This document shows, piece by piece, positions 2-62,596 of a DNA stretch of 64,000 nucleotides (the stretch's first letter is position 1; every line of letters begins with the position of its first letter). A program made the position numbers and the translations under genes. A model generated the notes under the pieces. It was not told the origin of the DNA. It searched no databases and saw nothing but the letters and a program-made list of their open reading frames with translations. The stretch comes from Vicinamibacteria bacterium (GTDB lineage Bacteria > Acidobacteriota > Vicinamibacteria > Fen-336 > CBDFGD01): assembly GCA_965246965.1 (NCBI GenBank), contig CBDFGD010000002.1, positions 3,701,208 through 3,765,207 of the forward strand, given 5' to 3'.

Positions 2-2179
2 GAAGGCATCCTCTCGAAAGCCGCCACGGCTCCGGTCGCCCTGAATCCCGATCTACCTGGCGAGATCGAGCGCATCATCAACACCGCCCTCGAGAAAGAC
101 CGTCAGACCCGCTATCAGCACGCGGACGACCTGCTCGCCGACCTGAAACGGCTGCGCCGGGATACGAGCTCGGGCGAGTCCCGGGCTCACGTGGCGGCGG
201 TGCCGGTGGCGACAGGAGCGGACGACGAGCTCTCCATGAGCCGCAGCGCCGTGAGGGCTGCGCGGCGCCATTGGAAGCTCGCGCTCCCCCTGGCAGCAGT
301 CGTCGGCGCGGCGACGATCGCGCTCGTCCTTCAGTCGCGCGAAGGGCCGGCTCTCACCGATCGCGACACGATCCTGCTGACAGACTTCACGAACACGACC
401 GGAGAAGACGTCTTCGACGAGACGCTGAAGCAGGCGTTGCGCGTCCAGCTCGAGTAGTCGCCCTTCCTCAAGCTCGTTGGTAGTGGGCAGGTCCGCTCCA
501 CCCTCGAGCGCATGAAGCGCTCTCCGGACGAGCGTCTCACGGTGCGGGTCGCCCGTGAGGTGTGTCAGCGAATCGGTGCGAAGGCTCAGATCGCCGGGTC
601 GATCGCCAAACTCGGTTCGAGCTACGTAGTCGCTCTCGACGCTCAGGAATGTGCTGTTGGCGAGTCTCTCGCCCTCGAGCAGGAACAGGCGGCAGGCCAG
701 GAGGCCGTGCTCGGCGCCCTGGGCGACGCGGCGCGGCGCCTGCGCGGGCGGTTGGGAGAATCCCTCGCTTCGGTCGCGAAGCTCGACGTCCCGATCGAGC
801 AGGCGACGACGGGCTCCCTCGAAGCGCTGAAGGCGTACAGCCTCGCGAACCAGGAGCGCAGCCGCGGCAACACGGAGGCCGCGATCCGGAGCTTCCGCCG
901 CGCGATCGAGCTGGACCCCGACTTCGCCGTGGCTCACGGAGAACTCGGCACTACCCTGGGCAACAGGGGAGAGCTTCGCGCGCAGCACGAACACTACCGC
1001 CGGGCCTTCGAGCTTCGCGACCGCGTCAGCGAGCTGGAGCGCCTCTACATCTCCGCGCACTACTACAACTCCGTCACCGGAGAGGTCGACAAGGCCCAGG
1101 CGGTTTACGAGCGGTGGAAGAAGACCTACCCGCGCGACTGGACGCCCGTGAACAACCTCTCGGTCCAATACCTCCGCTCGGGGGATCTCAATGCGGCTCT
1201 GGACGAAGCCCTCGCCGCGCTCGCCCTGGAGCCGGATCACGTGCTGCCGTACGCCAACGTCGCGGCGAGCTACTTCTTCATGGGGCGATTCGACGAGATG
1301 CGGGCCATCGTCGCGCGTGCCCACGGGCGCGGGCTAGACAGCTCGACGCTTCGGCTGTTCCTGTTCTGGGCCGGCGTGTGCGATGGTGCCGGCGACGAGC
1401 GCGGGGCCCAGCTGGCGGCGGAGGGTCACTCCGCCGAGCACCGGCTGCTGGGCGCCGCGGCCGTCGAAGCCTGGTCGCACGGGCGGCTGGAGGACTCTCG
1501 CACCTTGGGGGAGCGAGCGAGTCGTCTGGCGAGGGAAGCGGGAAACCCGGAGACCGGCCATCGCTGGACCCTCGACCTGGCAGCGGGGCATGCGCTGGTC
1601 GGGCGGGCTCGTGAGGCGCGCACGTTGATCGCGTCGGTCGAGGCCGACGACGGCGGCGAGGAATCGCTTCGCCTCGCGCTCGCGCGGGCCCTGGTCGGCG
1701 ATAGGGACGGCGCGTCGCAGCTGGGCGACGAGCTCAGCCAGGCTGCTCCGCACGACTCCTACCTGTAGAAGACCGGCTTGCCGTCGCTGCGAGGCGCCGT
1801 GGCTCTTCACTCCGGTGACCCGCGCGCCGCGGCCGACCATCTCGAGGCACTGGGCCCGCTCGACCTCGGCCAGCCCGGGCTGACCATCTACCTGCGCGCC
1901 CGCGCTCACCTGGCGTCGGGTGACGCGGAGCGCGCCCTGGCCGAATACAACTGGATCCTCGACCATCGCGGGCGCTACTGGCACAACCTCGGCCCCAGCA
2001 TCACCCTGCCCTTCCAGCAACTCGCGCTACTCGGCTCGGCCCGTGCGCACGCAGCCCTCGGCGACACATCTGCGGCGCGCCGCGCCTACGAGGACGTCCT
2101 CGCACTCTGGCAGGAAGCCGATCCCGACTTCGAGCCGGCCCTCCAAGCGAAGCGCGAGCTGACCGCGCTTGGCTCCTAG
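2..2179 (+). pseudogene. Ser/Thr protein kinase, C-terminal part (kinase C-lobe, one TM helix, long TPR-like periplasmic domain); 5' partial; two internal in-frame TAG codons
   Basis: One continuous frame (frame 2) gives ...LADLKRLRR..., a TM helix (LALPLAAVVGAATIALVL) and TPR-like repeats. The TAG at 455-457 falls inside a segment that reads as a continuous conserved motif (QLE*SPFL). Second in-frame TAG at 1766-1768; terminal TAG at 2177-2179. Confidence 0.6.
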
Positions 2180-2777
2180 CCGTTACTTCCGGGGGGGGGG
2201 TGCGCTTGACCGCCTCCTCGCGGTTGCGGATGTCCTCGTCCCAGTACTCCTCGAGCGGGACGCCGAGGCCGTCGATCACACGGTTGCACCAGGCGAAGAA
2301 CCCGGCGATGAAGTTCGCGGCTGCGATCGCCTGGTCGCTGTAGCCGACATTGCGCATCCTTTCCAGGAGCTCCTCGGTCACGTCCCACGGCGTCTCGGTG
2401 AGACGGATGACGTAGTCGAGCAGCGCCCGCTGCCGTGGCGCCACCGCCGCGGTATGCGGATTGCGTTTCAGCCCGCTGACCAGCTCCTCGTCGCCGCTCT
2501 CCCGGAGCAGCCCCCGCGCGTGGTGCTCGATTCAATAGTGGCAGCCGTTGAGCACCGAGACGGTGACCGCCACCATCTCGCGTTCGACGTAGGGGAGGTC
2601 ATTGGTACCGTGCATGACCCGCTTGTAGAAGAGCATCAGCGAGTCGAGCGCGTCCGGGACAGGCGAGTGGGCGAGGATGATGTTGTCGGTCGCGTCCCCG
2701 AGCCCGTAGCGCTCGTAGACCCGCTGGAGCTTGCCGCGCGCGTGCGCCGGTAGGGTGTGTTCGATCCACCACTTCAT
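2001..2777 (-). CDS. AhpD-like / carboxymuconolactone decarboxylase family protein with in-frame TGA at the second Cys of the CxxC motif (selenocysteine candidate); 3' end probably shorter (G10 homopolymer at 2191-2200)
   Basis: ATG at 2777-2775 overlaps the upstream TGA (ATGA). Reads MKWWIEHTLPAHARGK...VLNGCHY[TGA]IEHHARGLL, the CMD/AhpD CxxC..H active-site pattern with TGA (2532-2534) where the second Cys is expected. The Arg-rich tail after the 10-G run looks out of frame. Confidence 0.6.
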
Positions 2778-3250
2778 GGAGAGTCTCCGCTCGTGTCTTG
2801 GGTCGCCGCGCGAGCGGTGGATTCCTCCCTTTCCTCCATCACGCGATCGAAGCTCTTGCGCAGGTCCGGCAGGTTGGCGGCCAGCGCGGTGAACTCCCCC
2901 TTGGGCAGGCTCAGGCAGTCCGTCGGCTCCATGCAACGGATCGTGGCGGTGCGCCGGGTCTCGTTGAGCAGCGCCATCTCGCCAAACGTCTCTCCTTGCG
3001 AAAGCGTGGCCAGGCGCTGCTCAACGCCGCCGTCCAGGTGTTTGATGACCTCGACCTTGCCGCGCATGAGGATGTAGACGCGGTCGCCGAGGTCGCCCTG
3101 GCGGAACACCTCCTGGCCGGGTTCGAAGTGCTCGCGGTGGATGCCGCGCGTCCCCTGCAGCTTCAGCTGCACCAGCTCGCGGGGTAGGAACAGATCGTAG
3201 GTCCAGGAGGTCGCGACCTTCATGCGGTGGCCCCAGCCAGGCAGCTTCAT
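2774..3250 (-). CDS. Orphaned 3' fragment of a disrupted gene: NDH-2 C-terminal membrane-anchor segment plus cyclic-nucleotide-binding (CNB) domain
   Basis: N-terminus MKLPGWGHRMKVATSWTYDLFLPRELVQLK matches the conserved NDH-2 C-terminal tail motif (from memory); it is followed by a Crp/CNB-like fold (FGEMALL..RRTATIRC). The ATG lies inside the transposon target-site duplication and is in frame with ndh across the insertion. Confidence 0.65.
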   Translation of the reverse strand: MKLPGWGHRMKVATSWTYDLFLPRELVQLKLQGTRGIHREHFEPGQEVFRQGDLGDRVYILMRGKVEVIKHLDGGVEQRLATLSQGETFGEMALLNETRRTATIRCMEPTDCLSLPKGEFTALAANLPDLRKSFDRVMEEREESTARAATQDTSGDSP

Positions 3251-3311
3251 CAGACGGAATTTCCTAGTTTAAGGTCTCGACAAGTAGCCCTCCCCGTGCG
3301 AGGATCGTCTT

Positions 3312-4220
3312 GTGAGAGAACGATTCAACACGATGAAAGGACTACCTGTCATGAACATTCTACAGATTTTCGAGCGGTTCCCCACACAGCGCGATTGCAT
3401 CGCCCATCTCGAGCGCGCCCGATGGGGTGAGATCCCGCGTTGCCCCTACTGCACCTCCAACCGCACGGCGCGGCTTCAGCATCGACACCGCTGTTACGCG
3501 TGCAAGACCTCCTTCAGCGTCACGGTAGGGACAATTTTCCACCATACCCACCTGCCACTTCAGAAGTGGTTCCTCGCCGTCATGCTCATATTGAACGCGA
3601 AGAAGGGACTCTCAGCGCTTCAGCTCTCGCGGGATCTGAAGGTGAACAAGAACACGGCGTGGCGGATCTCGATGCAGATTCGAAAGGCGATGACGCAAGC
3701 CAATCAACGCCCCCTGCTGACTGGCATCGTCGAGATGGACGAGACCTATGTCGGCGGAAAACCTCGCAAAGGTGGCCCTCCGTCGAAACCTGGGCGCGGA
3801 ACGAAGAAGACACCCGTGATTGGGGCTATTGAACGCGGCGGCTCGGTCACCGCGACGGCGACGAAGAAGACCAGACTGCAGGGGCGTCATCTCCGCGCCT
3901 TCGTGAAGGATCGTATCGACACCACCACGGCCAGCTTGATCACCGATGAATACAAGGGCTACCTCGGCATGGCGAAGGTGCTCCCGCACGCCGTCATCAA
4001 ACACGCGCAGTGGTACGTCGATGGTCAGATTCACACGAACACGATTGAAGGCTTCTGGGCGCTCCTGAAACGCGGCATGTTCGGTCAGTTCCACAGCGTC
4101 AGCCGGAAACACCTGCAACGCTACGTGGACGAGTTCTGCTATCGCTACAATCTGCGGGGCGTCGAGCCCGATCATCAGTTTGCTCTCACCATCGACAGGG
4201 GATTAGGGGTGATCGGATGA
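3312..4220 (+). CDS. IS1595-family transposase (N-terminal zinc ribbon + DDE domain)
   Basis: CPYCTSNRTARLQHRHRCYACKTSF zinc ribbon; MDETYVGG and ...NTIEGFWALLKR DDE region typical of ISXO2-like IS1595 transposases. Confidence 0.85.
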   Translation: MRERFNTMKGLPVMNILQIFERFPTQRDCIAHLERARWGEIPRCPYCTSNRTARLQHRHRCYACKTSFSVTVGTIFHHTHLPLQKWFLAVMLILNAKKGLSALQLSRDLKVNKNTAWRISMQIRKAMTQANQRPLLTGIVEMDETYVGGKPRKGGPPSKPGRGTKKTPVIGAIERGGSVTATATKKTRLQGRHLRAFVKDRIDTTTASLITDEYKGYLGMAKVLPHAVIKHAQWYVDGQIHTNTIEGFWALLKRGMFGQFHSVSRKHLQRYVDEFCYRYNLRGVEPDHQFALTIDRGLGVIG

Positions 4221-5095
4221 GCATTCCGAAGGCCACGCACACCGGTGAACTCCAAATCGGACCCGTCACCATCGACTGCGCGGTGCTAGATAACGGGCTG
4301 AGAGTCCTGACTCAATCCGGCGTACTTCGTGCCTTAGATCGGTCGAGTCGTCCACAAGGAAAGGGAGCCCGTTTCGAACAGATTGCCCCTTTCCTCGCCT
4401 CTGACAACCTTAAACCCTACATAACAAAGGAACTAGCCGCTTCGAGCAGGCGCATCCGTTTCGCTGTACCAGGACGAGGACACGTTTACGGCTATGAAGC
4501 AGAACTGCTTCCGAAAGCCTGCAACGTATACCTCCAGGCGCGTGATGCCAGAGTGCTTCTTCCCTCGCAACAGCGTACAGCGGCCGCAAGTGATGTGCTG
4601 ATGCGCGGTCTAGCGATGGTAGGCATTGTCGCGCTCGTCGATGAGGCCACGAGTTACCAGGAAATCAGGGATAGGAAGGCCCTGAACAAGATCCTCGACA
4701 AGTACTTGCTGGCGGAACAAGCGAAATGGGCGAAGAGATTTCCTGATGAGTTCTACAAGCAAATCTTCCGGCTTCGAGGGTGGCAATGGCAGGGCATGAA
4801 GGTGAATAGACCGCAAGTTATTGGACGGTACACGAACGATTGCGTGTGGGATCGGCTCGCCCCTGGCGTCAGGAACGAACTTGAGAAACTGAACCCAAAG
4901 ACCGAAACAGGACGCAGGCGAGCCATGCATCACCAATGGCTGACGCACGATGCGGGCCATCCGGCGCTTCAGAAGCATATCAGCGGCGTGATGGCGCTCA
5001 TGCGGGCCTCGACCAAATGGGACAACTTCACGAGGCTGTTGCAACGTGCCTATCCGAAGATCAACACAAATCTAGAGCTACCCATCGACGAATGA
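4217..5095 (+). CDS. Hypothetical protein, passenger gene of the transposon (possibly phage-type P63C-like domain)
   Basis: ATGA overlap with transposase stop; 292-aa ORF in the low-GC island; DEATSYQEIRDRKAL motif. Assignment to a named domain is from memory only. Confidence 0.45.
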   Translation: MSIPKATHTGELQIGPVTIDCAVLDNGLRVLTQSGVLRALDRSSRPQGKGARFEQIAPFLASDNLKPYITKELAASSRRIRFAVPGRGHVYGYEAELLPKACNVYLQARDARVLLPSQQRTAAASDVLMRGLAMVGIVALVDEATSYQEIRDRKALNKILDKYLLAEQAKWAKRFPDEFYKQIFRLRGWQWQGMKVNRPQVIGRYTNDCVWDRLAPGVRNELEKLNPKTETGRRRAMHHQWLTHDAGHPALQKHISGVMALMRASTKWDNFTRLLQRAYPKINTNLELPIDE

Positions 5096-6342
5096 GTAGT
5101 CCGAACTGGGCGCACCAAACCATCTGGACGGGGGATTGCCTCGACATCCTACGCGGCATGAACTCGGCATCGGTCGATCTCGTCTACCTCGATCCGCCCT
5201 TCAACTCGAAAGCGAACTACGCCGCGCCCATCGGGAGCAAGGCGGCCGGTGCAGAGTTCAAGGACATCTGGACGCTCTCGGACGTGGACGTGGAATGGAT
5301 CAACCTCATCGAGGCGAAGCATCCAGCGCTGTACCGCGTTCTGCTCGCTGCAATGACCAACAGCGATAAGTCGTATCTCGCCTACATGGCCGCGCGGCTA
5401 CTCGAACTTCGCCGCGTACTGAAGCCTACCGGATCGCTCTTCCTCCACTGCGACCACACGATGAGCCACTACCTCAAGGTGGTCATGGACTCGATCTTTG
5501 GGCGACACCAGTTCAGGAATGAAATCGTTTGGGCATACTCTGGCTGGAACAAGCAATTACGGGCTCATATAGAGCGTCGGCATGACGTTGTGTTGTTCTA
5601 TGCGGCGTCGAAAGTATCGAAGTTTAACTACCCGACTCGCCCTTGGGATGGCAAGGCCGAATACGTCAAGACTCGGAAGCAGAAGGTCCGGGTTGAAGAC
5701 GATAGGCGAGAGTACGTGTTGTCCGATGCGGGGGGTGGAAAGCGCGTCAAGCGCTACCTCGACGAAGCCATGCAATACGGCGTCCCTTTGGACGACGTGT
5801 GGCGCATCGACAAGCTAAACAACTCGGACAGGGTGGAACGCACCGGCTACCCGACGCAAAAGCCGGTGGCTCTATTGGACCGGATCGTTAAGGCCAGCAC
5901 CAACGCCGGAGACATGGTATTGGACCCGTTCTGCGGGTGCGCGACGGCGTGTATCGCCGCCGAACAACTCCACCGGAATTGGGTAGGTATCGACGTCTCA
6001 CCGAAGGCGGCAGAGTTGGTCCGACAGCGTATGCGCGACGAGCTTGGCCTCTTCTACGATGGTGCTCACCGCACGGACATTCCATTTCGAACGGACCTTG
6101 GCAAGCTGCCACGCTACAACAGCCCAGAGAACCGCCGATGGCTGTACGGCGACCAGGGCGGTCACTGCGCGGGGTGTAACGCCCATTTCGAACCACGTCA
6201 TCTGGAAGTCGATCACATCATTGCCAGGCAGCGGGGAGGCACACACGCGCTGGACAATCTGCAACTGCTCTGCGGCAATTGCAACCGGATAAAAGGAAAC
6301 CGTGGCATGGACTACCTGAGAACCAAGTTACAGCTCAGGTAG
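5092..6342 (+). CDS. Beta-class amino-DNA methyltransferase (N6A/N4C, DPPF motif) fused to a C-terminal HNH nuclease domain
   Basis: Motif IV VDLVYLDPPFNS precedes motif I DPFCGCATA (beta order). C-terminus HCAGCN...EVDHIIARQRGGTHALDNLQLLCGNCN is an HNH motif. ATGA overlap with the upstream gene. Confidence 0.8.
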   Translation: MSSPNWAHQTIWTGDCLDILRGMNSASVDLVYLDPPFNSKANYAAPIGSKAAGAEFKDIWTLSDVDVEWINLIEAKHPALYRVLLAAMTNSDKSYLAYMAARLLELRRVLKPTGSLFLHCDHTMSHYLKVVMDSIFGRHQFRNEIVWAYSGWNKQLRAHIERRHDVVLFYAASKVSKFNYPTRPWDGKAEYVKTRKQKVRVEDDRREYVLSDAGGGKRVKRYLDEAMQYGVPLDDVWRIDKLNNSDRVERTGYPTQKPVALLDRIVKASTNAGDMVLDPFCGCATACIAAEQLHRNWVGIDVSPKAAELVRQRMRDELGLFYDGAHRTDIPFRTDLGKLPRYNSPENRRWLYGDQGGHCAGCNAHFEPRHLEVDHIIARQRGGTHALDNLQLLCGNCNRIKGNRGMDYLRTKLQLR

Positions 6343-6350
6343 CTTAACAA

Positions 6351-7604
6351 TCAAGACCGTAATCTAGGAAATTCCGTCATCAGATAGACCGTGCGCCACA
6401 ACCACCACGCCAGGAAGCCGGAGACCTGGAAGCCGAACACTTCGGCCACGGCGCTTCTGTGGCCGAGCGAGCCCATCTGACCGAGGCCCTTGAAGTCGTA
6501 GCGTTTCTTCGAGCCGCCGCGGACCGTGGCGACGACGTTGTGAGCGGCGATGGCCGCCTGGCGCGTCGCGTGCTGTGCGGTTGGGGGCGCGATACCGCCG
6601 CCTGGCGCCGGTACCCTCGCCGTGTCGCCGAGCGCCCAGACGCTGTGGCCGCTATCGACGTGCAGCTCTTGGTTGACGAGGAGCCTGCCGTTCTCGCTGC
6701 AGGGCAGCCCCAGCGCAGAGACCAGCGGATGAGGGAACGACGGCACCGTCGACACGAGCGTTCGCGTCGGGATGCGCTCCCCGCCCTCGAGGACTGCTTC
6801 GGTTCCGGTCGCGGCGTGGAGCCGCGTGAGCAGCCTCAGGTCGACACCGCGCTTCTTGAGCAGCCGTTGCGCGAACAGGGCCAGCTGCTCCGAGACCTCG
6901 GGAAGCACCCGGTCGCGCGAGTGCAGCAGGACGACGCGAAGCTCCGAAGCATCGATGCCGCGGTAGCTCTTGGCAACGCCGCGCACGAAGTCGTTCAGCT
7001 CGGCGACGACCTCGACGCCGGAGAAGCCGCCGCCCGCGACTACGAACGTCAGCAGCTGTCGACGCAGCTCCGGGTCCGACTCGATCGAGGCCTCCTCGAG
7101 GGCGTGGATGACGTGATTGCGGAGGGCGAGCGCGTCGCCCATGTTCTTGAACGGCATCGCGTGCTCGGGCAGGCCGCGCATGCCGCGAAAGTCCGTGACG
7201 GTGCCGAGGGCGACGACCAGGTGGTCGAAGGGGATCACGTGAGGCTGGGGCCGGAAACCCGGCGCCGTGATGATCTGCTTGTGCTAGACGTCGACGCGCT
7301 CGATCTCGCGCACGTGAATGTCGGTGCGCGGCAGCATGCGGCGCAGCGGGCTGACGATGTCCAGGATGCCGACGCCACCCGAGATCACCTCGGGCAGCAT
7401 CGGCTGGAAGACGAAGTAGTTCTCCTTGTTGACGAGGGCGATCTCGAAATCGTCCCCGCGTCCGAGCCGCTTCTCCAGCTCGAGGGCCGTGTAGACGCCG
7501 GCAAAGCCGCCGCCGAGGACCACGACTCGCGGCTTGCGTGGAGCCGTCAGTGGGCGACTCCGATCAACGGCGGCCACGGAGACACAGAGACGCAGAGAAC
7601 GCAC
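6351..7604 (-). pseudogene. ndh: Type II NADH dehydrogenase (NDH-2, ndh) with in-frame TAG and transposon-truncated C-terminus
   Basis: VVVLGGGFAGVYTA dinucleotide fold and second GGGFSGVE motif. In-frame TAG at 7284-7286 (VDV*HKQII) with the same frame continuing. Last 9 codons (MTEFPRLRS*) are encoded by the transposon IR-R. Confidence 0.7.
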
Positions 7605-30544: not shown

Positions 30545-32048
30545 CTAGGAGTCTGCGCGGCAGTAGTTCAGCCCGGGTGTGTCATCGTGCCTTGTGACCC
30601 GAGAGATCATCTTGCCTGGGTTAAACGGCAGTAGTGGGCTCGCGGACGAGTGCTCGCGAGGGAGGACGGGCGGATCCAAGGCCGGGCGGTGGTCATACCC
30701 AGACCATCTTCTGATTGAGTCTCCTGAGGTTGAGCGCCAAGCAAACGAGATTCCACTCGGCGCTGGTTTTCTCAAGCCCTCGAAGGCTGAAGGATTGGAA
30801 ACCAAGCACAGCCTTGATCCATCCGAATGGCGGTTCGCCGAGTTTGCGCCGCTTGTACCACTTGCGACCACGTTTTCATGCGGAGCGTCGCTTCGAGCTT
30901 CGAATTCGACGTTGGTGGAGAGTCTTTCTTTTCTCTCCCCAGAGCCACGAAACCGTCGATTCCGGTACGTTCCAAGTGCAGTAGGTTCTTTTCGGAACGG
31001 TAGCCGGCATCGGCCAGGGCACGCTTGGGCTTCTCACCGGTGTTGGCTTGAGCCGTTTTCAGCATCGGCTCGAGCTGACCGACATCCGCAGCGTTGTTGA
31101 TCAACCCGGTCGCAACGATCAGCTGCGATTTCTCGTCGACGGCGGCTTGGGCATTGAAGCACTGCTGGTAGCCACTCGAATCCTTCATGATGCGGCTTTC
31201 GGGATCGGTGAAGTTGTCCTGCTTCTTGTCCGGAGGTACGCCAAATCTCCTTTTGAACTTTGACCCTCGCTTCGATTCCTTGTCATCCCCTGGCCGACGT
31301 CCGGCCTGCTGATCTTCTTCCTTCTGACGGGCCTCCAGACGTGCCTTCGCTGCTTGGATTTTCTTGAGCCGTGAATCTCGGCGCGCCAGCTCTTCTGGCA
31401 GTTCGTCGCCACGAAAATCAGGACCAAACTCGACGTCTTCCGCAGCATCTTCTTGTTTCGCAAGAGCGGTGATAGCCCGAATCTCTCGACGGAGCTGTTT
31501 CTCCGTTTTCTTCATACGCTCGTAGCTCATCGCCTTGTGCTTGCTGGCATTCGCCTTGACCTTCGTTCCATCCAGAATCAACGTCCCAAGCTTGACCAAA
31601 CCCACTTCTTGAGCCAGACGCACGACTTGGACGAATACAGATCGAAACTGGGACAAATGGTCACAACGGAAATCACTGATCGTCCGGTGTGCCGGGAAAT
31701 TGCCTCCGCTCAAATAACGGTATGCGACATCCTCTTCCAGCTTCTTCGCGATCCCACGAGACGAAAACGTCCCTGTCGCATAGCCGTAGATCAGAACCTT
31801 CAGCATCATTCGAGGATCGAATCGTCGGTTCCGACGTCCATCGCCCTCGTAGCGCTCGTAGAAAGCACGCACATCCATCGCCTCCACCGTATCCGAGATG
31901 AAAAACGAAAGATGACCCTCCGGAAGCCAGTCTCGTGGATTCGACGGAAACAAACTCGATCGGTCAGGACTGTACGGACGGAAACTCGTTCCCATAACTT
32001 CAAAAACGCTCATTCACCCGATTTCGTTCCTGCCGCGCAGACTCCTAG
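30545..32048 (-). mobile_element. IS1182-family insertion sequence, 1504 bp, 19-bp perfect terminal inverted repeats beginning with CTAG
   Basis: CTAGGAGTCTGCGCGGCAG at 30545-30563 and its exact reverse complement at 32030-32048. Lower GC than the flanks; contains a single transposase gene. Confidence 0.8.
30772..32013 (-). CDS. IS1182-family transposase
   Basis: 413 aa; [34 protein letters not shown]...[12 protein letters not shown]... and [13 protein letters not shown] motifs typical of IS1182/ISH3-like transposases. C-terminus may be truncated. Confidence 0.75.
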
Positions 32049-32829: not shown

Positions 32830-34526
32830 GTAGCCCGAGCGCGGTGGTCGCGAGCGCTTCGCCGCCCGCCGCCCGCGCGCTCGGCCAGCGCCTCGGAGCC
32901 GCCGTCGAGGAGTCTTCTGAATTCCGCGGCGAGCAGTCCCTCACGGTGAATCGGCGGGCCTGGGTCGAGGCCGCGACGCTGCTTCGGGACGATCCCGACC
33001 TCGACTTCAAGCTGTTCCTCGATCTGTGCGGGGTCGACTACCTCGACGAGGACAGCCGCGACCGCTACGAGGTCGTCCTGCACCTCTACTCGCTGTCGAG
33101 TGGAGATCGGGTCCGGTTGAAGACGCGGTTGCCCGAGGAAGACCCCGCCCTCGACACGCTGTGCGGCGTCTTCAAAGGCGCGAACTGGTTCGAGCGCGAG
33201 GCGTGGGACCTCTACGGCATCGTTTTCGAAGGCCACCCGAAGCTGACGCGTATCCTCACCCACGACTCCTTCGTCGGGCACCCGATGCGGAAGGACTACC
33301 CGACCGGGCACCGCCACGTTCTGAAGGAGGCCAAGTCCCACCTGCTCGAAGTGCCCGAGAACACGGAGCACATGCTCGTCAACATCGGTCCCTCCCATCC
33401 CGCGATGCACGGCACCTTCCGGGTCCAGGCGTTACTCGATGGGGAGACGATAGAGGACTGCGAAGCCGAGATCGGCTACATGCACCGCAACTTCGAGAAG
33501 ATGGCCGAAGAGCGGACCTACTGGCAGATCATCCCGTACACGGATCGGCTGAACTACTGCTCCTCGTTCATGAACGGCCACGGCTGGGCCCTCGCCACGG
33601 AGAAGTTGCTCGGCATCGAGGCGCCCCCGCGAGCCGAGGCGGTGCGCGTGATCCTCTCCGAGCTGTCCCGCATCATGGACCACTTCATCTGCGTCGGCAC
33701 GAACGTCGTCGACCTCGGGGGCATGACGCCGTTCTTCATCCTGTTCCGTGCCCGCGAGGCGATCTACGACGTCCTCGATGCCGTCTGCGGGGCGCGGCTC
33801 ACGGTCTCCTACGTGCGGATCGGAGGCCTCGCCCAGGACGTGCCCGACGATTTCGACGCGCGCTGCCGGGCCGCGATGGCCAGTGTGCTTGAGGTGACCG
33901 AGCAGGCCAAAAAATTGCTGACGCGGAACATCATCTTCACGAAACGCTTCAAGGATGTCGGCGTGATGTCCAGGGAAGACGCCCTGTCCTACGGCTGGGT
34001 GGGTCCGTGCCTGCGCGGCTCCGGTGTCGACTTCGATCTGCGCAAGGACCAGCCGTACTCCGGTTACGAGCAGTACGACTTCGACGTGCCCGTCGGCAGC
34101 GTGGGCGATTGCTACGACCGCTACCTCGTCCGGATGGAGGAGATCCGTCAGAGCGTGCGGATCGTCGATCAGGCGCTGAAGACGCTGCCCGAGGGGCCCG
34201 TGATCGTCGATGACAAGGCGGTCGCGCTACCGCCCAAGTCCGAGGTCTACTCGAACATCGAAGCGCTGATGAATCATTTCAAGCTCGTCTACGACGGCAT
34301 CCTGCCGCCCCCGGGCGAGGTGTACGGCGCGACCGAAGCTGCGAACGGAGAACTCGGCTACTACATCGTGTCCGACGGCCGCAAGCACCCGCGGCGCGTG
34401 AAGGTGCGGCCGCCCTGCTACAACATCTACCAGGCCTTCCCCGAAATGATCCGCGGTTGCACGATCGCCGACGCGGTCGCCATCATCGGAGGTCTCAACG
34501 TGATCGCGGGAGAGCTCGACAGGTAA
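32826..34526 (+). CDS. nuoCD: NADH-quinone oxidoreductase fused subunits C/D (NuoCD)
   Basis: 566 aa; NuoC 30-kDa region followed by NuoD 49-kDa region (...[14 protein letters not shown]..., C-terminal ...[14 protein letters not shown]...). Confidence 0.9.
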
Positions 34527-34528
34527 CC

Positions 34529-36119
34529 ATGCCGAAATGCACCATCGACGGGCGCGAGATCGAGGTCGAGCCCGGCACGACCGTGATCCGCGCCGCTCTC
34601 GAGCTGGGGATAGAGATCCCGCATTTCTGCTGGCACCCCGACCTGCCCGTGGACGGCAACTGCCGCATGTGCCTCGTCGAAGTCGAGAAGATGCCAAAGC
34701 TCCAGATCGCGTGCAACAGCCAGGTCAACGACGGCATGGTGGTTCGCACGGACAGTGAAGCCGCGAAGCAGGCGCACCGCACGACCCTCGAGTTCCTGCT
34801 CGTCAACCACCCCATCGATTGCCCCGTGTGTGATCACGCCGGCGAGTGCTACCTGCAGGACCACTACATGGATCACGGTGGCCACGACTCCAAGATCGAG
34901 CTCGAAGAGAAGGTCCGGAAGCGCAAGGTCGTCGACCTCGGGCCGATCATGCTCGACGCCGAGCGCTGCGTGCTCTGCTCACGCTGCATCCGCTTCGAGA
35001 GCGAGGTTACCGGCACGAACAGCTTCGAGTTCGTGAACCGCGGCGACCAAACGCAGATCTCGACGTATCAGAATCGACCGATCACGCACGGCTACGCCGG
35101 CAACCTCGCCGACGTGTGCCCCGTCGGCGCACTGCTCTCCCACGACTTCCGCTTCCGGATGCGGGTGTGGTTTCTCGAGTCGACGGACTCGATCTGTCCC
35201 GGATGCTCGACGGGCTGCAACATCCATCTCGATCACCGCGACGGCGAAGCGCAGCGCTTCCGGCCGCGCCGCAACGTGCAGGTCAACAAGTCCTGGATGT
35301 GCGATGAGGGGCGGGCCCTCTACGCGGGGCTCGGTTCACCAGACCGCCTGAGCCAGGCGCGACTGAACGGAGCGGCCTCGAGCCTCGACGACGCGCTGGA
35401 CGCCGTGGCCGACGCCCTTCGCGACGCAGGATCGTGCGGCGATGCTGGCGAGCCCGCAGGCCAGCAACGAGGACCTTTTCGCACTGCGGCGGCTCGCGGA
35501 CGTGACCGGCGCGCGGCTCGACTTTCGCGTAGGCGATCCCCAGGACAAGCTGCAGGTCCGAGAGGACGAGATCCTGCTCCGCGCCGACCGCAATCCCAAC
35601 ACCAGGGGTTGCCTCGATCGGCAGATGGGGCGCAGCGGCGTGGCGCCGATCCTGGACGCGTGTCGAGCTGGCGAGGTCGAGCTGCTCTTCCTTCAGGATG
35701 CCGGCCTGCTCGACAACGAGCCGCTGGCCGCGGTCGCGAAAGCGGCAAAGAGAGTGGTCGTCATGGCGACCCATGAATCGGCTTCTGCGGACGCGCCGTT
35801 CGCCGTCCTTCCGGCGGCGACCTGGGCGGAGAGCGACGGTACCTTCACCAACTACGCGAGGCGCGTGCAGCGTTTCAAGCGCGCCTTCACCGCGCCCGGC
35901 GCCGCACGGCCCCGCTGGGAGCTGGCCGCCCTGTTGCTGCGACGCCTCGGCGAGCCATTCGAGGCTTCTTCGGCGCGCGACGTATTTCGGCTGCTGGCCC
36001 GGGAGGTCTCCATTTACGCGAGCCTGAGTCATCAGACGATCGGCACGGGAGGCCGCGCTGTCGGCGAGGAACCGGACGCCGCTGCGGCGGCCGAAAGCGG
36101 CGCCGAGGCGAGGGCGTAG
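34529..36119 (+). CDS. nuoG: NADH-quinone oxidoreductase subunit G (short NuoG); single-base frameshift near 35425-35445
   Basis: 2Fe-2S and 4Fe-4S cysteine motifs (CRMCLVEV, HPIDCPVCDHAGEC, CVLCSRCIRF). Frame 2 up to ...ALRDAG, then frame 0 ...AMLASPQASNEDLFALRRLADV... to the TAG at 36117. Confidence 0.8.
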
Positions 36120-42187: not shown

Positions 42188-42347
42188 TACTCTGATTCGT
42201 AAATACGGTGTCGCACCGAGAACGCCGAGGCGCCCGGATGGCAAGGAGCCGAAGAGGGAAAATACCGGGAGTATTTGACCGATGAGCGACGCAGCCAGGC
42301 GGGATGCATCGGCGTTCGAATGCAACCGTAGTTGCGGATCCGAGTAC
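42181..42347. repeat. CTAG-bounded hairpin element, copy B (167 bp): 9-bp perfect terminal inverted repeat plus ~35-bp imperfect stem around an 89-bp conserved core
   Basis: CTAGTACTC...GAGTACTAG termini; arms pair (GATTCG/CGGATC, TACGGT/ACCGTA). Core 42225-42313 is identical to copy C except 1 nt. The PBP stop (TAG 42185-42187) and PEGA stop (CTA 42344-42346) lie in the element termini. Confidence 0.7.
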
Positions 42348-48117: not shown

Positions 48118-48585
48118 TTACGTCTCCTCGATGTCCGCCTTGATGTCGATCGGGATCGAGCCCCTGACGCTCGTCGCTGCCGGGCACTTCTGCTCGTGCG
48201 TCGCGATCGCGCGCTCGGCGGCGTCTCGTTTGCCCTTCGGGATCTGAAGTGAGTAGCGGACCCGGATGCTCGTGATCCGGAGCACCTTGTCCGCCTCGCC
48301 GACGTCGCCCTCGACGTTGGCGATGAGGCTCTCTCTCGTCACCGGAATTTCGCGCACCTCCAGTGCACGTGCAAGGGTGCCGAGCAGTCAGCCGCCGACC
48401 GCGGCCACGATATGATCGAGCGTCGCCGGCACCTCCTCTTCAGGCTCCACGCCGTAGAACCGCTTGATCTCGCTGTGGACGCCGAACCGGAGCGGCTCGT
48501 CGAACGGTGCCACCCACGCGTGCCGGATCGGGCCTTTGATACGCTCGACACGAACGCGGCTGGTGTAAATCTCCTGTATCGCCAT
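48118..48585 (-). CDS. OsmC/Ohr-family peroxiredoxin-like protein with in-frame TGA at the first conserved (peroxidatic) Cys position (selenocysteine candidate)
   Basis: SD GAGGAG 5 nt before the ATG (48585). Reads ...LDHIVAAVGG[TGA 48388-48390]LLGTLARALEVREIP...HEQKCPAATSVRG.... The TGA aligns with the Cys of the AAxxGC motif; the second Cys (KCP) is present; same frame continues to the TGA at 48118. Confidence 0.65.
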
Positions 48586-61670: not shown

Positions 61671-62432
61671 ATGCGATCGCTTGTGTCTCTGATCACAATC
61701 GCCCTGCTCGGCCTCCAGAGCCAGGTCGCCGCCGCCGAGCGCGTCAAGATCGAAACCGATCGGGCGATCGTCTTCGATTCCGGTGCGCTGGCGCGGACGA
61801 AAATGGAGGAGTTCGCGGGACGGGTCGATCGCGGCGTGCGCGACATCGAGGCTTTCCTGCGCCGTGGTCCCGGCGGAACAGCCTTCGAAACGCGCCGCAT
61901 CACCTTCTATGTCAGCGACGAGGTGCGCATCTCGCGGGCGAAACGCCACTCGGTGATGCTGCCGCTCACCCGTGTGCGACGCGACGAGGCTCCCTACCTC
62001 CACGAGGCGACCCACGTGCTGGTGCCCGGACGCAGCGAAATGGTCTGGCTCAACGAGGGATTCGCCAGCTACGTGGAGAGCTGGGTGGCGGAGGACAAAG
62101 GGGGCTACGACGCCCACGTCTTCAGCCGGGCGGGAAACGCCGGCATCGATCGCGACGCCGTCCGTCACCTGCGCACGGGGCACGGGCAGTCCGCGCTCGA
62201 CTACGTCGGGACAGCAGGCGTGCCGCGGGGCTTCTATCGGCATCGACGCAGAGTCGCAGCCCCGTTCTACGTCTTGTCTCAATCCTTCGTGAAGTTCCTC
62301 GTCGAGCGGACCGGCCTGCACCTCGTGGTGGACCTCTTCGCCGAGCGCGACGTCGGCCAGGCCGTGCGGATTCGCACGGGCCGCTCGATCGGCGAGTGGA
62401 AAGCGGACTGGCTGGCCGAGCTGCAGCCCTAG
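61671..62432 (+). CDS. Secreted hypothetical protein with HExxH motif (putative zinc-peptidase-like)
   Basis: SD GGGAG; signal peptide MRSLVSLITIALLGLQSQVAAA; YLHEATHVL HExxH; the TAG stop lies in the first CTAG of repeat copy C. Confidence 0.5.
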   Translation: MRSLVSLITIALLGLQSQVAAAERVKIETDRAIVFDSGALARTKMEEFAGRVDRGVRDIEAFLRRGPGGTAFETRRITFYVSDEVRISRAKRHSVMLPLTRVRRDEAPYLHEATHVLVPGRSEMVWLNEGFASYVESWVAEDKGGYDAHVFSRAGNAGIDRDAVRHLRTGHGQSALDYVGTAGVPRGFYRHRRRVAAPFYVLSQSFVKFLVERTGLHLVVDLFAERDVGQAVRIRTGRSIGEWKADWLAELQP

Positions 62433-62596
62433 TGGCCCGTAACAGGGAGATCGATGCCAGCGAGACTGCCGAGGCGCCCGGATGGCAAGGAGCCGAAGAG
62501 GGAGAATACCGGGAGTATTTGACCGATGAGCGACGCAGCCAGGCGGGATGCATCGGCGGTCGCAGCGGTATCGAATCCCCTGTTACAGGCCACTAG
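62429..62596. repeat. CTAG-bounded hairpin element, copy C (168 bp): ~38-bp imperfect inverted-repeat stem around the conserved 89-bp core
   Basis: CTAGTGGCCCGTAACAGGGAGATCGATGCC... pairs with ...GGTATCGAATCCCCTGTTACAGGCCACTAG. Core 62472-62560 is identical to copy B except 1 nt and contains a 15-codon mini-ORF with a GAGG SD. Confidence 0.7.

Follow-up and report, generated by a model that had tools for sequence, protein, structure and literature searches.

A candidate AhpD-like selenoprotein gene with a predicted selenocysteine codon in a high-GC, probably acidobacterial genome

The AhpD-like gene described here lies on the minus strand, close to the first positions of a 64,000 nt stretch of contig CBDFGD010000002.1 (assembly GCA_965246965.1, positions 3,701,208 to 3,765,207), which is referred to below as the window. 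Its reading frame contains an in-frame TGA at codon 82, predicted to be read as selenocysteine (Sec, U). From the ATG start codon, the frame reads ...YVEREMVAVTVSVLNGCHY-TGA-IEHHARGLLRES... (VSVLNGCHY-TGA-IEHHARGLL in translation around codon 82) and stays mechanically open to position 2001. A GGAG motif is located 7 nt upstream of the ATG, which overlaps the TGA stop codon of the preceding open reading frame (ORF) in an ATGA arrangement. The GC content of third codon positions (GC3) is 0.91 upstream of the in-frame TGA and, in the same frame, 0.92 downstream of it, up to a run of cytosines (the C-run) near the 3′ end. The ratio of non-synonymous to synonymous substitution rates (dN/dS) stays below 1 before the UGA as well as behind it, with values of 0.18–0.75 downstream. 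Feature coordinates are collected in Table 1.

With Cys put in for U82, the product matches the TIGR01926 model (“peroxidase-related enzyme”) over residues 30–174 with 119.1 bits against a curated cutoff of 81.8, so that one domain spans the UGA. The PF02627 (CMD) domain, scored with the same replacement (49.2 bits vs. 23), also runs across it. The frame, the domain match and the GC3 values all agree with the initial annotation of this DNA, which had placed a TGA at 2532–2534 inside an AhpD/CMD gene reading NGCHY-TGA-IEHH. The scores stayed below the cutoffs of the canonical AhpD model TIGR00777 (17 bits vs. 191.95), of NF041238 (AhpD_rel_CFYUT (seleno)protein; 50.4 vs. 175) and of NF053654 (YciW-related (seleno)protein; 23.4 vs. 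310). The best structural relatives, on whose sequence matches the fold assignment rests, are PDB entries 3C1L, 2PFX, 6K40, 2PRR and 2OYO of the same subfamily (residues ~30–178, E-values from 4e-20 to 8e-15). Entries 3C1L (Mlr4105; E = 4e-20) and 2PFX (E = 1e-19) align with residues 31–177 and carry Cys at the U column. All five entries have a CxxC motif, none is a selenoprotein, and their functions are uncharacterised or putative. Judging by these profile matches, the locus very probably encodes an AhpD-like thiol/selenol oxidoreductase of the TIGR01926/COG2128 branch of the CMD family.

The 3′ part of the gene is altered at the C-run. The last ~180 nt of the open frame (2001–2189) look noncoding in the AhpD frame, with a GC3 of 0.51 and a GC content of 0.80 at first and second codon positions (GC1/GC2), and the convergent plus-strand gene at 1769–2179 in the overlapping DNA has a GC3 of 0.85. 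Three syntenic relatives end the AhpD-like gene at ...KRNPPGSTD-TAG, and this TAG aligns with 2178..2176 of the window. A run of nine cytosines would yield ...TPPRK-TAA, while a run of 11 (one added C) would yield ...KRTPPPGSNG-TAG, which resembles the ...NPPGSTD-TAG of the relatives. The frameshift in the run of ten, the lost coding signature and the TAG of the relatives together place the real gene at about 2176–2777. The end at 2001 is an artefact, due either to a homopolymer-length error or to a recent frameshift in the C-run. Hence, of the span 2001–2777 proposed initially, the start at 2777 and the openness of the frame to 2001 stand, while the coding end moves to about 2176–2190.

The codon at the UGA column was read in 163 related loci, namely the three closest database matches and 160 loci from scans of genome and metagenome collections. 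TGC was found 95 times, TGT 48 times and TGA 26 times, and neither TAA nor TAG occurred. An alignment to CMD/AhpD homologues, proposed earlier as a check on this column, has thus returned either Cys (143 loci with TGC or TGT) or TGA (26). The three closest database proteins (64–67% identity) are C-terminal fragments, the contigs of which read N[RG]CHY-TGA-[IV]EHH with the TGA at the same column. TGA is shared by the 13 nearest homologues of the window gene, more distant ones having Cys codons, and in a neighbour-joining tree the window protein falls inside a pure-TGA clade (n = 14). The TGA loci include metagenome-assembled genomes (MAGs) labelled Acidimicrobiia, Gemmatimonadota, Longimicrobiales, Blastocatellia, Gaiellales, Dormibacter and Planctomycetota/Phycisphaerales. 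The syntenic relatives L168 (on a 6.5 Mb contig), L169 and L170 keep the TGA and have intact neighbouring genes; their mean column identity is 93%. Since the same column holds TGA in 26 other loci, including these relatives, the UGA is ancestral and older than the local gene damage described below.

A clade member that is 47% identical to the window protein (L091) has a tRNA-Sec gene 1.2 kb from its AhpD-like gene. This locus is a 154 kb marine contig with the Sec-type AhpD-like gene at 3001–3546 and the tRNA-Sec downstream; the 386 aa ORF adjoining the tRNA has no Pfam match. Near another Sec-type AhpD-like gene (L015:10809–10903, plus strand), ARAGORN calls a 95 nt “tRNA-Asp (GTC)” of tRNA-Sec-like length, which has no Rfam match at the gathering threshold and may be a false positive or an unusual tRNA with a long arm.

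The sequence downstream of the UGA was compared with the published model of the bacterial Sec insertion sequence (bSECIS), which comprises a loop of 3–9 nt with a G in its first two positions, a stem of 4–16 bp, a distance of 16–37 nt from the UGA to the loop and a minimum free energy of −7.5 kcal/mol or lower (PMC13188914). Hairpin B (Table 1), with −10.1 kcal/mol, agrees with all of these constraints; its 5 bp core is kept in the clade and does not differ in L169 and L170. A search by bacterial SECIS criteria, also suggested initially, thus yields a candidate, other than the one first named. That hairpin (GGGG-GCUG-CUCC, hairpin A) reaches −5.9 kcal/mol, misses the −7.5 threshold and, by inspection of the alignments, is not kept in the relatives L084 and L001–L003; hairpin B is the better choice. 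Hairpin C is an unlikely SelB-binding element. It begins 3 nt past the UGA, so that with the UGA in the A site its 5′ arm would be within the ribosome and melted by it, to argue from the biology of the fdhF SECIS.

Hairpins of this kind are more frequent at UGA loci. Under a strict perfect-stem model, 15 of 27 Sec loci passed vs. 20 of 137 Cys homologues (Fisher p = 1.6e-5, a value that overstates independence, as the loci are phylogenetically related). The mean energy of the best hairpin was −7.5 kcal/mol in Sec loci, −3.5 kcal/mol in Cys loci and −5.4 kcal/mol in GC-matched Cys loci. In four of four comparisons, the 29 codons that follow the UGA had the lowest synonymous substitution rate (dS). 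The hairpin register differs between lineages. In most sister loci, the hairpin is fdhF-like (GGAGAA-GGUC-UUCUCC), a pairing that is lost in the subclade of the window; the GGUC/GGU loop of the sisters is 18 nt after the UGA, whereas in this subclade the loop is at +27 nt. In sister loci L085–L094, the GGUC loop at 18 nt corresponds to that of fdhF. The E. coli fdhF SECIS is likewise a coding-region hairpin with a G in the first two loop positions; the window hairpin differs in its CGGGA loop at +27 and the lack of a bulged U, and has no sequence similarity to it.

A screen for in-frame stop codons with coding signal on both sides showed that the window contains another candidate selenoprotein gene, which is OsmC-like and reads ...AAVGG-TGA-LLGTL...HEQKCP.... 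Its best NCBIfam match, below the cutoff, is NF041052 (“OsmC-related (seleno)protein”). The TGA occupies what we take to be the position of the first, peroxidatic Cys of OsmC. A Cys homologue (P0022) reads ITS-C-LLGTL, and many other homologues are either truncated at the TGA or called in full length with W in its place. An orthologue from a Vicinamibacterales MAG (L164) has the in-frame TGA on its contig, and in a further one (L165) this column is occupied by an in-frame stop. A SECIS-like hairpin follows the TGA, and its counterpart in L164, GGCGCGCU-GGA-AGCGCGUC, contains two compensatory pairs. Hairpin B is preferred because the hairpin of the OsmC-like gene shares its spacing (26–27 nt) and NGGRN-type loop; we lean towards hairpin B as the SECIS used by the AhpD-like gene. 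The presence of two selenoprotein-family genes with a shared hairpin geometry on one contig is the best available evidence pointing to a genome that decodes UGA as Sec. The only database matches with a named source (~70% identity) are from Blastocatellia, Pyrinomonadaceae, Acidobacteriota and Vicinamibacterales.

From these data we infer that the UGA at codon 82 directs the insertion of Sec, with a probability of about 0.88. The initial proposal of a candidate selenoprotein is supported by Cys in distant homologues and PDB relatives, TGA in the nearest homologues, the SECIS-like hairpin and the second selenoprotein gene. In the proposed mechanism, a SECIS hairpin in the coding sequence downstream, most likely hairpin B, would bring SelB-GTP-Sec-tRNASec to a ribosome that has paused at this codon.

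Several observations weigh against Sec insertion, against hairpin B or against a working gene. No selA, selB, selD or tRNA-Sec gene was found within the 64 kb window by Rfam, ARAGORN and a motif scan, and the SelD/SelA/SelB motif scan found nothing in the window or in any homologue locus. In the literature searched, the TIGR01926 branch has no protein that was characterised biochemically as a selenoenzyme. RNAalifold run on the five-sequence clade favours hairpin C, which overlaps hairpin B and shows no covariation, and hairpin B has only one compensatory pair in this clade. The 26 Sec loci yielded no shared structure in RNAalifold, and shuffled sequences outscored an fdhF-like helix in fixed register over these loci, again with no covariation. 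Taken as a whole, the 86 nt behind the UGA fold no more stably than shuffled sequences (z = +0.75), so that only local hairpins are informative. Finally, because of the frameshift in the C-run, the disrupted upstream gene and the nonsense codons in neighbouring genes, the AhpD-like gene may be poorly expressed, altered or not fully functional in this genome.

The same local damage is what speaks for the TGA as a nonsense mutation or sequencing error in a pseudogene: three in-frame TAGs in neighbouring genes (455–457, 1766–1768 and 7284–7286), an IS1595-family insertion in the upstream gene, the C-run frameshift and a nuoG gene in two frames. However, relatives carry sense codons at two of the three neighbouring TAGs and Asn, by protein alignment, at the third, whereas the TGA is kept in 26 other loci, including syntenic relatives with intact neighbours. 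Coding signal and purifying selection also persist past it, and we regard decay of the gene or a sequencing error at this codon as most improbable. A reading as two small genes, an 81 aa N-terminal protein ending at the TGA and a separately initiated C-terminal one, would match the public gene callers, which annotate 81 aa and 88–119 aa ORFs at every orthologous locus. Yet the next in-frame start is a GTG at 2444, 29 codons past the TGA; the intervening codons (His86, IEHH) are conserved in protein and have a GC3 of 0.92; and Cys homologues and crystal structures indicate a single domain that needs both halves. This arrangement, too, has hardly any likelihood.

Scarcely more probable is the insertion of a standard amino acid at the UGA, be it Trp or Gly under a reassigned code, Cys by a tRNASec-like tRNA(Cys), or a product of near-cognate readthrough. 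It would fit the lack of sel genes in the window, the odd 95 nt “tRNA-Asp” of L015 and the W printed at the UGA in some public calls of OsmC-like orthologues (P0021, P0023 and P0024). Such W calls presumably arise where gene callers change to code 4 for short contigs. Reassignment of the genetic code was rejected, as TGA is the stop codon of 14 of the 29 window ORFs with strong coding signal. To our knowledge, UGA-reassigned lineages are unlike a genome with a GC content of 66.5%, which also counts against it. Moreover, homologues have only Cys, and neither Trp nor Gly, at the aligned position, hairpins of the SECIS type are enriched at UGA loci relative to Cys loci, and a true tRNA-Sec adjoins the gene in clade member L091.

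If codon 82 is read as Sec, its chemical role can be considered from the active site. In selenoenzymes, Sec is usually the attacking nucleophile. In the family alignment, E67, C79, C/U82 and H86 do not vary and Y81 hardly does, which gives the proton-relay spacing of Glu at −15, Cys at −3, Tyr or His at −1, the second Cys or U at 0 and His at +4. The relay consists of Glu36/Cys48/Tyr50/Cys51/His55 in PA0269 and of Glu118/Cys130/His132/Cys133/His137 in M. tuberculosis AhpD (PMC3141380). PA0269 (PDB 2O4D; match E-value 2e-6) has a helix-turn-helix active site with spacing identical to that of E67/C79/Y81/U82/H86. The relay spacing of M. tuberculosis AhpD is also the same; the window gene differs from it in having no adjacent ahpC, Sec in place of the nucleophilic Cys and low overall identity. 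Cys133 of this AhpD is exposed at the base of the cleft and cross-links to Cys61 of AhpC, while Cys130 is partly buried; in B. thailandensis AhpD, the first Cys is the more important one (PMC6626918). The label of resolving Cys that the initial annotation gave to the UGA position is probably wrong, as the column aligns with the exposed nucleophile Cys133. On balance, alignment favours Sec82 as a replacement of the attacking nucleophile rather than of the resolving Cys. Sec82 would then attack an oxidised partner or substrate, Cys79 (equivalent to Cys130) would resolve the adduct as a selenenylsulfide, and Glu67, Tyr81 and His86 would act as the Glu/Tyr(His)/His proton relay. No AhpC gene adjoins the AhpD-like gene in the window; in the relative L168, an AhpC-TSA/Redoxin gene is located ~8 kb from it.

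A study of the Sargasso Sea described 27 AhpD-like sequences with a CxxU motif (COG2128) as a new family of selenoproteins (PMC1088965). In the Global Ocean Sampling (GOS) data, “AhpD-like 1” (CxxU, 299 sequences) was among the most abundant selenoproteins (PMC2398784). AhpD-like selenoproteins also occur in complete genomes, and selenoproteins had been recorded in Acidobacteria before (PMC1794560). The family is entered as “AhpD-like protein, TIGR01926, CxxU” in a 2026 review (PMC13188914), and BSepDB has an AhpD-like family page (PMC13326102). The statement in the initial annotation that Sec-containing AhpD-like proteins are a described family is correct (PMC1088965, PMC2398784, PMC13188914). 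The window gene shares with this family the TIGR01926 model, the CxxU motif, widespread Cys homologues and a SECIS-like hairpin within the gene beyond the UGA. Unlike the family as described from marine metagenomes, the window copy comes from a 66.5% GC genome, probably of Acidobacteriota. By these sequence-level defining features, the window gene is a further member of the AhpD-like CxxU family known since 2005.

The finding introduces no new kind of system or mechanism. Its value lies in the correction of a systematic mis-annotation and in the drift of the SECIS: public calls of the gene and its orthologues (L001 and L168–L170) are split at the UGA into an 81 aa CMD fragment and an 88–119 aa fragment. 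All recovered public calls of these genes would accordingly be wrong, and reading the UGA as Sec would restore a complete redox enzyme. It would also identify this high-GC, soil- or sediment-type lineage as one that uses selenium and has two or more selenoproteins, and add a data point on Sec/Cys exchange and on the drift of SECIS position within one protein family.

In relatives, the gene order comprises MscS, TauE, Mrp antiporter genes, an aminotransferase, a 550 aa NDH-2-type flavoprotein, the AhpD-like gene and, beyond it, a convergent gene for a 958 aa Ser/Thr kinase-TPR protein. The 550 aa flavoprotein consists of Pyr_redox_2, NDH2_C and a C-terminal cNMP_binding domain, and its gene immediately precedes the AhpD-like gene. 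The window follows this order but is damaged. The flavoprotein gene is split by an IS1595-family element with 13 bp terminal inverted repeats (CGGAATTTCCTAG) and an 8 bp target duplication (TCATCAGA) at 3247–3254 and 6377–6384. The three in-frame TAGs in the neighbouring genes, which seem whole apart from them and have no interruption in close relatives, may reflect pseudogenisation, substitution errors or amber suppression. Exact-match look-ups of the window proteins returned none on record.

The ATGA overlap indicates that the AhpD-like gene is translationally coupled to the NDH-2-type flavoprotein gene in this lineage. A conserved functional link between NDH-2 and AhpD-like proteins is unsupported, as the adjacency was found only in close relatives. 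The combined proposal that the AhpD-like selenoprotein is a dedicated partner of the cNMP-regulated flavoprotein and that its SECIS has moved from an fdhF-like position at +18 to an NGGRN-loop hairpin at +27 is unlikely as a whole. If true, it would describe an NAD(P)H-driven, cyclic-nucleotide-gated selenol redox pair, and the +27 NGGRN-loop hairpins of both selenoprotein genes would reflect lineage-specific SelB recognition.

Table 1. Features of the AhpD-like locus, its surroundings and the second candidate selenoprotein gene (window positions unless a locus is named).
Feature	Position	Strand	Remarks
AhpD-like (TIGR01926 “peroxidase-related enzyme”) gene, candidate selenoprotein	2176..2777	−	~200 codons; start ATG 2777..2775; probable ancestral stop TAG 2178..2176
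In-frame UGA, codon 82, predicted Sec	2534..2532	−	motif C79-H-Y-U82
Hairpin B, best SECIS candidate	2493..2511	−	GCUGCUC-CGGGA-GAGCGGC; 7 bp stem, 5 nt loop, loop 27 nt after UGA
Hairpin A, named in the initial annotation	2503..2516	−	CGGGG-GCUG-CUCCG; overlaps hairpin B; −5.9 kcal/mol
Hairpin C	2505..2528	−	GAGCACC...GG..UGCUC; starts 3 nt after UGA; 7 invariant pairs, −8.2 kcal/mol, z = −0.4
C10 homopolymer (G10 on plus strand)	2191..2200	−	2 extra nt vs. relatives; conserved TAG stop put out of frame
cNMP-binding ORF (PF00027)	2774..3254	−	TGA stop overlaps AhpD-like ATG; 3′ remnant of the transposon-split NDH-2/cNMP-binding flavoprotein gene
IS1595-family element, 3.1 kb	3255–6376		GC 0.57 vs. 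0.68; splits flavoprotein gene
IS1595-family cargo: transposase	3312–4220		
IS1595-family cargo: P63C-domain protein	4217–5095		
IS1595-family cargo: N6/N4 DNA methylase-HNH fusion	4936–6342		
In-frame TAG, NDH-2 gene	7284–7286	−	VDV*HKQ; relatives GAG/GCG
In-frame TAG, kinase-TPR gene	455–457	+	QLE*SPF; relatives CAG/CAA
In-frame TAG, kinase-TPR gene	1766–1768	+	SYL*KTG; relative Asn
OsmC-like gene, second candidate selenoprotein	48118–48585; TGA 48390..48388	−	PF02566 49 bits across TGA
OsmC-like SECIS-like hairpin	48351–48369	−	CGUGCACU-GGA-GGUGCGCG; 26 nt after UGA; −10.2 kcal/mol
tRNA-Sec	L091:4791–4882	−	ARAGORN anticodon TCA; Rfam RF01852 65.6 bits

Elsewhere in the window, the nuoG gene (Nqo3-like complex I subunit; 34457–36119, plus strand) is present as two overlapping frames, 34457–35776 and 35442–36119. 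The split points to a frameshift in an essential gene, and the assembly may therefore contain indel errors. A further transposase gene (DUF772 and DDE_Tnp_1) is located at 30772–32013 on the minus strand, and the region of ~28.5–32.8 kb contains few ORFs with the usual GC3 signal of the genome.

An intergenic repeat of ~165 nt with terminal inverted repeats GTGGCCTGTAACAGGG...CCCTGTTACGGGCCAC occurs at 62431–62594 and 42214–42318 of the window and at L168:16492–16655. No Rfam match was found for it. The copies are 92–96% identical, including that of the relative, the flanking DNA of which is only ~80% identical; because the repeat is more alike than its flanks, it may represent a miniature inverted-repeat transposable element (MITE)-like element or a small RNA.

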